From Clostridiales bacterium (GTDB lineage: Bacteria; Bacillota; Clostridia; TANB77; CAG-508): 64,000 bases of DNA. A model generated the notes under the pieces. It was not told the DNA's origin. It made no database searches and saw nothing but the letters and a program-made list of their open reading frames with translations. A program made the translations under genes and the position numbers. The first letter of the stretch is position 1. The number at the start of each line of letters is the position of its first letter. Positions 14,445-24,266 of this stretch are shown here, one piece after another. Where the stretch lies: assembly GCA_003534295.1 (NCBI GenBank), contig DPDV01000008.1, positions 9,460 through 73,459 on the forward strand, read 5' to 3'.

Positions 14445-14519
14445 TGGGGTATCGCCAAGCGGTAAGGCATCGGACTCTGACTCCGACATTCCTGTGTTCG
14501 AATCACAGTACCCCAACCA
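14445..14519 (+). tRNA. tRNA-Gln (anticodon CTG)
   Basis: Cloverleaf TGGGGTA/TACCCCA acceptor stem, anticodon loop CTCTGAC, T-arm CTGTG-TTCGAAT-CACAG, CCA encoded. Very similar to enterobacterial tRNA-Gln. Confidence 0.9.
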
Positions 14520-14550
14520 CAAAGCAACTAGTTAATTTGACTAGTTGCTT
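14475..14550. repeat. attL: 76-bp direct repeat (3' 45 nt of tRNA-Gln plus downstream hairpin AAAGCAACTAGTtaatttgACTAGTTGCTT)
   Basis: Identical 76 bp recur at 24191-24266. Confidence 0.85.
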
Positions 14551-14645
14551 TGTTTTACAAAACAACTTAAGTCAAAACACTGTTGCTCCTTGTTTCGCGA
14601 AAAAAATCGTTCACTGTGTTCACTAACAATTTTTCGCGAGGTATA

Positions 14646-15820
14646 TTATTCTGCGAATGTTAAAGTATTTGAAAGAACATTTGCAGACTTATTTTTTGTA
14701 TCTTTTTCTAAATGGGCATAAATATTAGCAGTAGTAGAATAAGTAGAATGTCCAAGCCAATCTTGAATTTCTTTCATAGGTATTCCTTTAGCAAGTAAAA
14801 GACTAGCACAAGAATGCCTTAATCCATGAAAAGTAATTTTTCTTAAAACATCTTTATTCTTTTTCATAATCAAAGTAAAATGGTCTGTAACATATTCTGG
14901 TCTAAATAATTTGTCAGTAGAATCGACGCATACATAATCTAAATATTGTTTATTATAACTGTTTCCACATAATTTTTCATTTTCATCAATTTGTTTCTTG
15001 TGTTCTTTTAGAAGAACGATAATCTCATCAACTAATGGTAAAGTTCTATAACTAGATTGATTTTTAGTTTTATCCTTCAAAAGAATAACTCTTTTATTAT
15101 CTTTTCTGGTTTCAATGGCTTTGTGTTTGATGGTAATTGTTTTATCTTCAAAATTAAATGCATCCCATCTTAAACCTAAAACTTCACTTCTTCGCAATCC
15201 ATAAAAACTAGCAAGATAAATAACTATTTTTAAAGGATCATCTTTTATTAAGCTAAAAAGTGTATTAAGTTCAGCCTTAGAATAAAAAGTACCAATATAC
15301 TGTTCTTTTTTCGGTCTTTCAATTTTATCAGCAGGATTACTTAATATTAAGTCTAATTTTAGAGCAGTTTGCAATGATTTTCTTATAACATTATGATAAT
15401 GTAATACTGTATTTCCGGTTAATTTTTTTCATATAAAGTAGTATAAAATTCTTGAATATGAACAGGTTTTAAATCTTTAAGTAGTAATTATTCATCTTCA
15501 AAATAATCGCAAATTTTATTCACTATAACTTTATAAGAATCATAAGTGTTTTCTTCAATAGTATTTTTAATATCTAGCAACCATTCTTTAAGATATAAAG
15601 TAAATAATTTTTTATTGTTCTTTGATGTAGTACAATTAATAGTTTCTTTAAAATCTGCTAAAATTTCTTGCATTTTTTGATTTGCTAAACGTTTATTATT
15701 ACCTTTTTCAGATAGTCCTGTTGAAACCCATTTTTGTTTTCTTTTACCATTAATATCTTTATAATTTAAAACAACTTGATAAATATTATTTTTTATTTGT
15801 AGGCTTGCTGTTATATTCAT
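14646..15820 (-). pseudogene. int: phage-type tyrosine integrase, disrupted by an in-frame TAA and a frameshift in an A7 run
   Basis: The catalytic domain has HGLRHSCASLLL...LGHSTYSTTANIYAHL. The N-terminal arm-binding part (15488-15820) ends DYFEDE-TAA, followed in frame by LLLKDLKPVHIQEFYTTLYEKN. An A8 in place of the A7 would give ...KKLTGNTVLHYHNVIRKSLQTALKLD. Confidence 0.8.
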
Positions 15821-15907
15821 TAAAACTCCTTTCTTTTCTCATAACAGACTAGATTTAACCTACTATTGATATTGGTATAATACCATGTTTATAACTTTAA
15901 ATCCAGT

Positions 15908-16120
15908 CTATATTTCATTTTGATTTGTTAAATATGCTATAACATTTCTTTTTGGTATTTTGTATTGTCTACCAACTTTAAGTGCTTTTATTGTTTTATT
16001 TCGTACTAATCTATAAGCAAGAGTTATACCAATTCCAAGCATTTCCTTTAATTGATTGATATTTACTAAATCTGGATATGAAGTAAACATCATTTCATAA
16101 TTTTCTTTAATACTTCCCAT
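15908..16120 (-). CDS. xis: excisionase/HTH_17-family DNA-binding protein
   Basis: 70 aa. HTH reads INQLKEMLGIGITLAYRLVRNKTIKALKVGRQYKIPK. Confidence 0.6.
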   Translation of the reverse strand: MGSIKENYEMMFTSYPDLVNINQLKEMLGIGITLAYRLVRNKTIKALKVGRQYKIPKRNVIAYLTNQNEI

Positions 16121-16188
16121 AGGGCAGATCTCCTTTCTTTAAAATTTAAAATAAAAAAGACTTATTAAACAATTTTAATAAATCTCAT

Positions 16189-16656
16189 TAATAACTATAA
16201 ACACATCTATTTTTATATTTCTGTGCAGGTATTTTAATATTCATATTTACTGATTTTGGAACATCAAATCCAACTTTCAATTTTCTATCTATTACTAAGT
16301 TTCCTTTATTATTAGTATGATAAGCAGATGAATTCCATTTTACAAAAACATAATTTGAAATGTTACTATTACTAAACGATAGTTACATTGAATCTTGAAT
16401 TTGTTGTGCTATCATTTGCTCGTAACTGTTGTCATCTTTCTTTGGTCTATTATAAGTTTTAAAATATTCTTGTAAATAAATTTTTCTATTTTCAGAATTT
16501 TCTTTTTTGCGTTTTTCTTTTTCTTCTTTATTTCTTTGTTCTTACTACCTTTGAAACATATTGAGTAGTAGTACCAACAATTCCTGCTATTTTATTTTGT
16601 TTCAAATGTTGATTATAATATAAATCTAAAATCTTCTCTTTATTACTCATATTCAT
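16189..16656 (-). pseudogene. decayed HTH-domain gene (three frames) of the island
   Basis: Strong RBS GAAGGAGG. MNMSNKEKILDLYYNQHLKQNKIAGIVGTTTQYVSKVVRTKK is followed by a stop. The continuation appears in two other frames. Confidence 0.4.
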
Positions 16657-16752
16657 TTAGCCTCCTTCTATGGTTGATTTTTTGTTTGTAAAATTTTTGA
16701 CATAAGTATCCTATAGGAACTTACATTTTATAATTAACTTTTTATTTCATTG

Positions 16753-21819: not shown

Positions 21820-21852
21820 GAAAGTGATTTTGTTGTAACAAAACAGCGACTA

Positions 21853-21883
21853 GGGTACCTATTATTTAGGTACCCCAGTTTTT
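21853..21883 (+). terminator. intrinsic terminator after leuS
   Basis: GGGTACCTattatttAGGTACCC followed by CAGTTTTT. Confidence 0.7.
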
Positions 21884-21968
21884 CATATTTTTTAGTAGTA
21901 ACCCCTGTATAATTGGAAAATAATTGAAAAAATAGTAGAAAATAAAATTGCAAAGTTTGATTTTAAAA

Positions 21969-23214
21969 TTATCTTTCCAAATCCCATTCTTTTTCCATTT
22001 CTTCATGTTTTATTTGTTTTTCTGGATCAAGAAAAGTATTAGTTTCTTTTTGAAAATCTCTAATTAAATTATCTTCTTCAGCAATATCAAATTTAACACA
22101 AATCCAATGTATGAATTTATCAATAGTTTCGTAGAATTTATCAATTATTTTGTGTAATTTACTATTTTCTTTTTCTAATTTACTAACTTTATATTTGTAT
22201 TCATACTCTAAATTATAAGATTTTTCTTGATATTCCTTTTCAAGTTCTTTTTTTCTGTTATCATATTTTAAATCAAGAGTATTATTTTTATTTTGATATT
22301 CGTGTTTTATTTCTTTTACAGTATTGTGTAATTTCTTGTTATCTGCAATGATTTTATCTCGTTCTTTTTGATATTTTACAGCCTCATCAACAATTTTGGA
22401 TTGTTTTGATATTTCTTTATGCAATGATAAATTACATTATATAATTCTTTAATTAAATCATCTTTAGGTTTTATGATTTCTTTTAGTATTTTTTCATCTC
22501 TTTTTGTTGAAAACTTACTAATTTCATTTATATTTGGAACTTCTGGTATTTCTAGTTTAATTTCTTTTAGAACTTTCTTAGTATTTTCATAATTTGTAAT
22601 TTTCTTATATTCTTCAACTGTATAATGTTTTCTGTCAGTATCTTCTACAAACATACCGCTTTCTAAATTAAAACCCTTTGATTTTATATGATTAAAGTAG
22701 GCATCCTGTAATTTTCTATAACTGTCTTGACCTTTCCAAAAATCTCTTGCACAAATTTTATCAATGTCGTTTCCATCTTTGTCTTTGGTATGAACAACAG
22801 GAACAAACATTAAGTGCATATGTGGTACACCTTCATCTAAATGTACCACTGCTGATATTATATTTTTTCTCCTAGATTCTTATAACTGCATATAAATTTA
22901 TAACATTCATCAAAATATCTTTTGGTCTCTTTTTCTCCAATTTTATCAAAGAATGCTTGGTCAGATGTAAATATCATTTGACACATTATTATACTATTAC
23001 TCCTAAGATGACCTTGCACATTATTTTCTTTTAAATATTTATCAAATTCTTTGGCGTATGTTAGTCCATTTTTTTTAATGTAATAATTTAAGTGTGTTTT
23101 TGTAGGAGCAATATCTTTATTAGTATGATTTTTTGCTTTTCTATCATTATGAGTTCCTTTTCCATTTACTTCTGCTCGTGTTAATTTTTCATTTCTTACA
23201 ATAACATGACTCAT
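21969..23214 (-). pseudogene. mob: MobV-family relaxase (Mob/Pre plasmid recombination enzyme) split across three reading frames
   Basis: N-terminus MSHVIVRNEK... resembles MobM. The HxDE..PHxH motif VHLDEGVPHMHLMFVP sits in the second frame. The C-terminal coiled coil is in the third frame. The first junction is restored by A5 to A6 (NLGEKNIISAVVHLDE). Confidence 0.75.
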
Positions 23215-23261
23215 ATCTCCTTGCCCCTCCTTCTTTGCTCGAGATATTGTTTCAATGTCTA

Positions 23262-23295
23262 ACACACTAGACAAACAAAGTTTGTCTGTGTGGCA
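23262..23295. promoter_or_regulatory. candidate oriT: inverted repeat followed by GTGTGG just upstream of mob
   Basis: AGACAAACaaagTTTGTCT-GTGTGG. MobV oriTs have an IR next to a GTGTG-type nick region. Confidence 0.35.
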
Positions 23296-24190
23296 GGGTT
23301 AGGCAATCCCACACCCCAAAACCTAAAATTTCTTAATTGCATTTTAGATTTTTCATAAAAATTTGCTTATTGCAATTTTTATGAATGTGAGCAAAAAAAT
23401 AAATTTTTTACTCACAACCCAAAAGCATAAGCGCTTTTTGGCATTTACTTTAGCAACTACTAAGCAGAAACTAGAGGAAGAGAGCTAAAGTGAATTAGGT
23501 GTAATAATCCCATTGTTACAAATAGAATTATTACGCCTATATAAGTAGAAACCGTCGGTCGTTCGCCTCGTTTCATAGGTAGTCTAGTAAGTAGCTTTGC
23601 TACTATAATTGTTGATACTACTAAAGTATCTTTGTTCATACTTGTCCAAACTTTTTACAATTATAAATCCACACCAAAATATGCCACCGAATACTCTTTT
23701 ATTATTGTGAGTCTGTGTTCTAAAATCTCACTCACTCACCTTGTATAATTAGACTGCTTATACAAATACGAATGAACTTTATAGCATCGGCTCATTACAC
23801 CTATCACTTTTTAAGAGTTTGTGGCAATTCTCTTTTAAACATAAAAAACTACCTGTAGCTTAAAAACTACAAGTAGTCTATGTTTATTCTATTTAATTAG
23901 CCATCACAATCGATTTAAGGCAATTTATTGTGAGGATAGAGTAATTTTTTACGATAAAATTTTATAAAAAATTTTCAAAATCTATTTATCAATGGTAGAT
24001 TATCTGTTATAATAGTTCATAAATAACATCTAACCAATATCTAACCAAAACATTAAAAAATATGTTATTTTATAAATATTGTTTAATAGTAAGTTAGATA
24101 AATTAGTATGGGAAAAATGTTTGAGATAAAGCTATTTTAAGAAGTATTATATAATAATAAATAACAAAATATATAAAACACTTATAAAGG

Positions 24191-24266
24191 CTCTGACTCC
24201 GACATTCCTGTGTTCGAATCACAGTACCCCAACCACAAAGCAACTAGTTAATTTGACTAGTTGCTT
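24191..24266. repeat. attR: second copy of the 76-bp direct repeat (partial tRNA-Gln 3' half plus hairpin)
   Basis: Identical to 14475-14550. Confidence 0.85.

Follow-up and report, generated by a model that had tools for sequence, protein, structure and literature searches.

Between ylmH and eno, the stretch of DNA analyzed here (the window: 64,000 nt of contig DPDV01000008.1 from a Clostridiales bacterium) harbors an island of about 9.7 kb that starts within the gene for tRNA-Gln(CTG) and ends, next to eno, with a second copy of the 3' part of this gene. From left to right, it comprises a tyrosine integrase (Int) pseudogene, an intact excisionase-family (Xis) gene, the remnant of a gene for a 155-aa protein, an intact DUF6076 gene, a cargo block with an intact gene of the PNP_UDP_1 family (here PNP) and an intact gene for a leucyl-tRNA synthetase (LeuRS), and a MobV relaxase (Mob) pseudogene with inverted repeats upstream of it (Table 1). 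In the following, the island is described as a decayed integrative mobilizable element (IME) whose cargo derives from a five-gene cluster by an internal deletion, a structural account that we regard as nearly certain. The LeuRS encoded at the end of this cargo is probably an accessory enzyme kept by selection, while its proposed role in resistance is put forward more tentatively.

Table 1. Features of the island, with positions given in window coordinates
Feature	Position	Strand	Assignment or method
tRNA-Gln(CTG), integration target, intact	14445-14519	+	ARAGORN; Rfam tRNA 62.4 bits
attL copy of the 76-nt direct repeat (tRNA positions 31-75 plus 31-nt terminator hairpin)	14475-14550	+	
Tyrosine integrase pseudogene	14646-15820	-	Pfam Phage_integrase on 242-aa piece; SAM-like and arm-binding domains on 110-aa piece
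HTH_17/excisionase-family gene, 70 aa, intact	15908-16120	-	Pfam PF12728; NCBIfam TIGR01764 'excise'
Pseudogene of the 155-157-aa backbone gene of the family, at least 2 lesions	16188-16656	-	tblastn with L004 157-aa protein
DUF6076 gene, 381 aa, intact, backbone member	16880-18025	+	Pfam PF19553
Cargo block homologous to the PNP/radical-SAM/PLP-decarboxylase/GFO/LeuRS cluster, internal 4,343-bp deletion	18039-21886	+	blastn to L032
PNP_UDP_1 gene (nucleoside phosphorylase/AMP-nucleosidase-like), intact	18115-18867	+	Pfam PF01048
Perfect 20-bp-stem hairpin after PNP gene	18870-18911	.	Repeat finding; kept in L032 and L028
Sigma-70 consensus promoter of the cluster operon (TTGACA, 17 nt, TATAAT, with TG)	18959-18987	+	12/12 match
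Conserved leader, ~170 nt, including 20-nt direct repeat at 19088-19126	18988-19156	+	Alignment; TRF
Chimeric 42-codon remnant open reading frame: first ~31 codons of radical-SAM gene, fused out of frame to tail of GFO gene	19157-19284	+	tblastx
Bacterial-type LeuRS gene, 808 aa, intact, foreign composition	19393-21819	+	TIGR00396 leuS_bact
Terminator-like hairpin after LeuRS gene	21853-21875	+	
MobV (Mob_Pre) relaxase pseudogene, three pieces	21969-23274	-	Pfam PF01076 split over two open reading frames
Inverted-repeat cluster upstream of mob, candidate origin of transfer (oriT)	23269-23441	.	88-94% conserved in L117 and L119
attR copy of the 76-nt direct repeat	24191-24266	+	

Insertion in the tRNA-Gln gene and occurrence in the species

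Repeat finding showed the attL and attR copies of the direct repeat to be 100% identical over 76 nt, with a start-to-start spacing of 9716 nt. The repeat begins at tRNA position 31, where the anticodon loop (CTCTGAC) starts, and is composed of 45 nt from the 3' part of the tRNA and 31 nt that form the downstream hairpin. ARAGORN predicted this tRNA as the only one in the window, an exact-string search revealed no third copy of the 76-mer in the 64 kb, and a perfect repeat of this length within 64 kb cannot have arisen by chance. A preliminary description of the locus, made from the sequence alone, had proposed such a perfect 76-bp repeat, consisting of the 3' 45 nt of tRNA-Gln and a 31-nt hairpin, around an island of ~9.7 kb that lies in the 3' part of the tRNA gene and separates eno from the tRNA. 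The repeat was found exactly as proposed, and the insertion was corroborated by a single-copy empty site with eno adjoining the tRNA. IMEs are flanked by direct repeats; in the present case the repeat is perfect over 76 nt and is reduced to a single copy at empty sites.

Occurrence was sampled among public-assembly contigs encoding the exact eno protein (n = 24). The same island was present in 22 of them, one carried a different, composite element (L004), and one had an empty site (L002), consisting of the full tRNA-Gln gene and one copy of the 76-nt sequence, with eno directly adjoining. The flanks of the window matched L002 with 0 mismatches over 11,371 and 9,971 nt (21.3 kb), the two alignments overlapping by exactly 76 nt. 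A search with the exact 76-mer in a second metagenome collection retrieved 12 contigs, representing five empty junctions, three attL and three attR sites and one undetermined case; none of the 12 contained an attP-type junction. Including L002, there are six empty-site contigs in total, and the suggestion of the preliminary description to look for an empty tRNA-Gln/eno site in related genomes has thus been fruitful. All 24 contigs selected for the exact YlmH protein carried the island, the exact island LeuRS protein was found in at least 999 contigs, and one record name among the YlmH-matched contigs indicates origin from a human gut metagenome.

In a Clostridia species that is common in the human gut, the island constitutes a real insertion within the tRNA-Gln gene. 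Judging from the contigs sampled, it shows vertical inheritance and a very high frequency, and precise losses across the 76-nt repeats occur now and then, L002 probably reflecting a recent one. The composite element at the same eno/tRNA-Gln site in L004 (11372-21266) has a Mob and right-end module 97% identical to that of the window, a different cargo and an intact 406-aa integrase that is only 37-43% identical to the window's; these are followed by a tRNA-Leu(TAA)-like 3' fragment and then by the start of another element.

A shared IME backbone and its decay

Intact relatives of the island (loci L114-L120) have the order Mob_Pre (393-414 aa), variable cargo, DUF6076, 155-aa gene, HTH_17, Int and tRNA-Gln(CTG). 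Their DNA is 83-93% identical to window positions 18028-14647 and 75-87% identical to positions 24237-21969. The family backbone stops at 18028 and resumes at 21969, the segment in between (18029-21968) being the sole part without a match in the family loci, whose cargo slots contain unrelated genes. The island belongs to a widespread, tRNA-Gln(CTG)-specific IME family that is built from Int, Xis, the 155-aa gene, DUF6076, cargo and the MobV relaxase. At the junctions of intact relatives, a 9-nt core (CTCTGACTC) marks the same point as the left edge of the 76-nt repeat. An annotated record or paper describing the family was not found. There was no matching record in the annotated plasmid collection, where the only DNA match was 71 nt of the integrase gene; the phage collection was searched with the LeuRS protein only, and viral databases searched at the DNA level, as well as a scan of viral contigs with the radical-SAM protein of the parent cluster (see below), yielded nothing relevant.

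A different arrangement was seen in L115-L118 (2804-2844, 11181-11255, 11386-11422), where a tRNA-Gln of the window type is split at the anticodon loop, its 5' and 3' halves flanking the element and sharing only the core CTCTGACTC. At a distance of 4 nt from the integrase stop codon, these elements have a second tRNA-Gln(CTG), complete and different from the split one; an element of this type may disrupt its target tRNA and bring along a replacement. L119 is an exception to this pattern of split tRNA and replacement tRNA.

Frame reading revealed an in-frame TAA (15488-15490) and a frameshift in an A7 run (near 15424-15430) in the integrase gene, for which tblastn needs two frames; the repaired protein of 391 aa matches hundreds of intact integrases of 391-394 aa at 85-92% identity. 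The relaxase gene, encoding 393-414 aa in intact relatives, is interrupted by frameshifts near 22850-22860 (A run) and near 22430, so that tblastn with the L004 Mob protein needs three frames. The first of these frameshifts is common to the window and the otherwise different L004 element (L004 12704-12713), the second is present only in the window. With respect to the 155-aa gene, the 157-aa protein of L004 matches the remnant with residues 59-156 only (57% identity), and three-frame translation disclosed a frameshift and a stop. Integrase, relaxase and 155-aa gene thus add up to at least six lesions, which are the same in every copy examined. Identical split gene calls were obtained in more than 40 independent contigs, which shows that the lesions are real and, compared with the strain diversity sampled, old. 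Intact backbone members are the 70-aa gene, which scores 33.3 bits against TIGR01764 (cutoff 28.8) and has the same position as Xis in intact relatives, and the DUF6076 gene, with counterparts of 376-377 aa at the same position in L114-L120. The inverted repeats upstream of the relaxase, which may include an oriT, extend over 23269-23287, 23318-23352, 23352-23385, 23386-23416 and 23418-23441.

Since integrase, relaxase and 155-aa gene are broken, the element is a decayed IME that is unable to move by itself. An IME encodes its own recombinase, a property abolished here by the TAA and the frameshift in the integrase gene. A cis-mobilizable element (CIME), in turn, no longer has its genes for integration and transfer but keeps both att sites, which is the situation encountered in this CIME-like island. 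Open reading frames and Pfam assignments between the repeats included no type IV secretion system gene, nor was there any phage hallmark gene for structure, packaging, lysis or replication, PHROGs giving generic HTH matches only. The preliminary description had recognized a tyrosine integrase, an excisionase, a MobV relaxase and an oriT-like inverted repeat, in a layout typical of an IME or a prophage remnant. All of these features are in place, with five inverted repeats upstream of the relaxase, but integrase and relaxase are in pieces and the element as a whole has decayed. As no phage hallmark is present and the backbone matches intact IMEs at tRNA-Gln(CTG), the term IME fits and prophage remnant does not; the latter was ruled out, with no phage families found by PHROGs or in the Pfam content.

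That the element is a currently functional IME, or a prophage remnant after all, strikes us as extremely improbable. Its perfect att repeats, the intact Xis, the conserved inverted repeats upstream of mob and the recent precise loss suggested by one clonal empty site would fit a functional IME, but the integrase stop and frameshift and the two relaxase frameshifts are present in all copies. Likewise, an attP junction is lacking among the 12 exact 76-mer matches, phage structural or replication matches are absent, and the plasmid collection matches only the 71-nt integrase piece mentioned above.

Firmicutes IMEs that combine a tyrosine integrase with a MOBV (Mob_Pre) relaxase and reside in the 3' parts of tRNA genes have been reviewed (PMC5704250, PMC5357655). 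The island resembles them in its size class (~7-10 kb), in its modules (Int, Xis, cargo, and a relaxase with an oriT, here a candidate one), in its location in a tRNA gene with flanking direct repeats and an undisrupted target, and in the absence of conjugation-pore genes; it differs in that this copy has lost integrase and relaxase function. CIMEs are decayed elements that have lost integration and transfer genes and kept attL and attR, as described for ICESt1-related islands of Streptococcus thermophilus (PMC5704250). Decayed genes and retained attL/attR sites are common to these and our island. CIMEs can moreover be mobilized in cis once a related active element has accreted, and the tandem or composite arrays at the same site in L004 and L117 are suggestive in this respect. 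In contrast to CIMEs, the gene remnants of the island are still recognizable and Xis is intact.

A cargo block derived from a five-gene cluster

LeuRS homologues with 76-96% identity to the island protein are always encoded by the last gene of a tight operon, in the order B12-binding radical S-adenosylmethionine (radical-SAM) enzyme (470 aa), Pyridoxal_deC-like protein (555 aa; a pyridoxal phosphate (PLP)-decarboxylase-like enzyme), GFO/IDH/MocA protein (477 aa) and LeuRS. A 250-aa PNP_UDP_1 gene is located upstream of the operon, or downstream of it in one lineage. This five-gene cluster was found in at least five chromosomal neighborhoods on low-GC contigs of related gut Clostridia, with G+C raised relative to the flanks in each. 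The closest copy, in L032, aligned with the island in two blocks (blastn): positions 18039-19252 of the window correspond to L032 4302-5515 (94.2% identity) and 19251-21886 to L032 9859-12495 (94.0%), and the 4,343 bp between the two L032 segments are missing from the window. At the deletion junction (19251/19252) the sequence reads TACGCAG/CGAAAAGG, with 2-nt microhomology. The genes for the three middle enzymes (B12-radical-SAM, PLP-decarboxylase-like, GFO/MocA) were removed, whereas promoter, PNP gene and an intact LeuRS gene were kept. The preliminary description correctly named the mobility genes of the island but missed this cargo with its PNP and intact, foreign LeuRS genes.

The promoter of the cluster operon, with its extended -10 element, is conserved in all six aligned cluster loci and was kept despite the deletion, and we infer that the LeuRS gene is expressed from it. 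The leader contains two copies of a 20-nt direct-repeat unit (TTAATATGTAC/T...), which all cluster copies have kept; it could represent a protein operator. A T-box or riboswitch upstream of the LeuRS gene was considered and rejected: Rfam returned nothing at E <= 1, the RNAalifold covariation term was positive, and the single-sequence fold had a z-score of -0.84. For the PNP gene, all NCBIfam matches were sub-threshold, and its ratio of nonsynonymous to synonymous substitution rates (dN/dS) relative to the cluster copies was 0.12-0.21.

Host DNA has a G+C content of ~28%, compared with 37-44% in the 19-22 kb segment of the window. For the LeuRS gene, G+C at third codon positions (GC3) is 0.43 versus 0.165 +/- 0.02 (maximum 0.203) for the 25 host genes in the window. 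In the same captured block, the PNP gene has a host-like GC3 of 0.159, a contrast to the LeuRS gene that recurs throughout the cluster loci and may point to different origins of the two parts. The three intact island genes for DUF6076, PNP and LeuRS (16880-21819) are on the + strand and nearly all other window genes on the - strand, including the two largest open reading frames (1177 aa at 52324-55857 and 1215 aa at 55995-59642). Changes in the sign of the GC skew are confined to the island cargo and the region near 60-61 kb. Outside the island, an 862-aa open reading frame at 8806-11394, with 9/18/27-nt tandem repeats at 8821-8905, matches no Pfam family on record; it encodes 858 or 862 aa depending on the strain, and its exact sequence is absent from the protein collection.

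The LeuRS as a probable retained accessory enzyme

The island protein scores 947 bits against TIGR00396 (cutoff 548) and has the catalytic, editing (PF13603) and anticodon-binding domains of Pfam. Alignment to Thermus thermophilus LeuRS identified the HLGH and KMSKS motifs as well as the TTRPDT and AVPAHD motifs of the editing domain. With a full-length match to the leuS model, HIGH/KMSKS signatures and a CP1 editing domain, it qualifies as a bacterial LeuRS. In the relative L133, a LeuRS of the island clade (805 aa, 65% identity, 41% G+C) is encoded back to back with a second, host-like LeuRS (814 aa, 55% identity, ~30% G+C). Also encoded in the L133 region (5829-17234) are a PNP_UDP_1 protein, a 337-aa protein resembling class-II synthetases and, in one operon, a radical-SAM enzyme and a methyltransferase; the region may represent another cluster built around an extra LeuRS.

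The island LeuRS is probably accessory in view of the empty sites, its foreign composition, the unrelated cargo of relatives in the same slot and the LeuRS pair in L133. If it had instead displaced the native gene and were now the sole, essential LeuRS, this would explain the conservation and fixation of a dead element, in line with its presence in 22/24 eno contigs and 24/24 ylmH contigs. A native host leuS was indeed not found, as the scan of genome contigs gave, among the matches listed, only distant LeuRS proteins (47-53% identity), and a host-type query from L133 did not retrieve one either. Yet the site is empty in six contigs, among them one whose flanks match the window perfectly over 21.3 kb, and L133 carries both LeuRS types side by side, making displacement very improbable in our view.

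As to selection, the three backbone pseudogenes have accumulated six lesions in 2.95 kb, compared with none in the 4.3 kb of the LeuRS, PNP and DUF6076 genes (Poisson P = 1.6e-4 for all three intact genes; P = 0.007 for the LeuRS gene alone, 2.4 kb). The dN/dS ratio of the LeuRS gene relative to cluster copies is 0.06-0.09. In nine island copies chosen without reference to LeuRS, the density of single-nucleotide polymorphisms (SNPs) was 0.27/kb in the LeuRS gene and 2.0/kb in the relaxase pseudogene, a comparison that is weak because the integrase pseudogene has none. The LeuRS could also be a biosynthetic helper that supplied activated leucine in the parent cluster and has persisted in the island as a neutral, not yet decayed leftover. 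Synthetase paralogues that feed biosynthesis are known, for example VlmL in valanimycin formation, and the near identity of the island copies means that little time has elapsed. However, the absence of lesions in 2.4 kb of LeuRS gene next to six in three neighboring backbone genes (P ~0.007), a deletion that spared promoter, leader and an intact LeuRS start, the very high frequency of the island and the lack of a tRNA-dependent transferase in the cluster speak against such a leftover, which we therefore deem improbable.

Several points weigh against an accessory LeuRS under selection. The failure to find a native leuS, mentioned above, is one of them, and the presence of such a gene is presumed from the existence of empty-site contigs. 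These contigs, in turn, could in principle be assembler paths across the 76-nt repeat built from short reads. Furthermore, the dN/dS ratio cannot measure selection after the deletion, the island copies being nearly identical, and the lack of SNPs in the integrase pseudogene implies that the island is young relative to neutral drift.

Proposed history and meaning of the island

Taken as a whole, the findings are best explained, with a fair degree of probability, by an IME family member that captured a gene cluster, underwent deletion and decay, and retained a putative resistance LeuRS. Such an element would have integrated by a tyrosine-integrase crossover in the anticodon loop of tRNA-Gln, as inferred from its anatomy and its intact relatives. 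Its attachment site would have carried the 3' part of the tRNA and the terminator, leaving the tRNA intact and creating the 76-nt repeat. Its variable slot is occupied by a captured cluster with the PNP-like gene and the radical-SAM/PLP-decarboxylase-like/GFO/LeuRS operon. As the alignment with L032 shows, a 4.3-kb deletion at a 2-nt microhomology removed three enzymes and joined the operon promoter and leader to the LeuRS gene. Integrase, relaxase and 155-aa gene decayed afterwards, as their lesions show, while the genes for LeuRS, PNP, DUF6076 and Xis stayed intact. Loss of the island could proceed via RecA-dependent homologous recombination, or via the intact Xis and a related integrase supplied in trans. 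Selection would have kept the LeuRS as an accessory second synthetase, whose likeliest role, still a hypothesis, would be immunity without production against a LeuRS-directed metabolite of bacteria with the full cluster.

The LeuRS homologues (76-96% identity) are linked in an operon to three uncharacterized enzymes, which may be those of inhibitor biosynthesis. The island LeuRS might be a target-replacement resistance ('immunity-only') gene, a role we propose tentatively. The nearest precedent is AgnB2, the agrocin-84-resistant LeuRS encoded on plasmid pAgK84 of Rhizobium rhizogenes K84, which is likewise a second complete LeuRS on a mobile element, adjoins biosynthesis genes for a nucleotide-type compound and serves as a model for a self-immunity LeuRS. 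The two enzymes share only 39.8% identity according to the plasmid search, and AgnB2 resides on a plasmid with complete biosynthesis genes, whereas those of the island have been deleted and its inhibitor is hypothetical. MupA and MupB, the mupirocin-resistant isoleucyl-tRNA synthetases (IleRS) of staphylococcal plasmids, are also foreign, extra class-I synthetases on mobile elements. They replace the drug target and thereby confer resistance in the absence of the producer's biosynthetic genes, which is proven for them and hypothetical for the island LeuRS; they also act on another amino acid and are distant in sequence, the island protein scoring ~100 bits against the NCBIfam MupA/MupB models (cutoff 1900). 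A literature search for self-resistance clusters with a LeuRS turned up only the agrocin and albomycin literature.

A resistance function is confronted with a number of counterarguments. No LeuRS inhibitor tied to the cluster is known, and no cluster product has been identified. Neither PNP nor any of the three deleted enzymes scores above the cutoff of a curated family or has a close solved relative; the deleted enzymes gave remote matches only, to GAD-like decarboxylases and generic B12-radical-SAM models, and the cluster product is therefore not predictable. An alternative is that the LeuRS of such clusters might have a biosynthetic task, such as the supply of Leu-tRNA or Leu-AMP. Diagnostic resistance substitutions were sought and discarded: eight LeuRS positions are clade-specific, several of them vary among bacteria, and at several T. 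thermophilus LeuRS departs from the comparison set. The 'MFSYPSG..HLGHWFNF' motif at the N terminus is shared by the host-like LeuRS of L133.

The missing diagnostic substitutions would equally suit a spare or condition-specific synthetase that is useful in itself during stress, leucine limitation or dosage demands, with no inhibitor involved, as would the complete set of catalytic and editing motifs and the score above the leuS equivalog cutoff. Firmicutes are known to have duplicate synthetases with a regulatory role, thrZ and tyrZ of B. subtilis being examples. Its descent from an operon in which three small-molecule enzymes are tightly clustered and which is transferred between genomes as a unit, the absence of a T-box or other known amino-acid-sensing leader in Rfam and the strongly foreign composition make a spare synthetase rather unlikely, though less so than displacement or a neutral leftover.

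Although still speculative at present, the full cluster may make an undescribed LeuRS-targeting antimetabolite, with the island as an immunity-only derivative that spread in this prevalent human-gut species by protection against producers, a scenario to which we give somewhat less than even credence. Given the recurring PNP-LeuRS pairing, this compound might be a nucleoside or an aminoacyl-adenylate mimic. LeuRS is a drug target, as exemplified by the benzoxaboroles. As a tRNA-integrated island, the locus represents an ordinary, known kind of mobile element, and it is the accessory LeuRS from an uncharacterized cluster that adds interest. If the cluster does make a LeuRS inhibitor, this would be a new class of natural antibiotic acting in the gut, and the island a naturally mobilized resistance gene. 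The locus records the stepwise change of a mobile element into a fixed, selectively retained chromosomal gene cassette.

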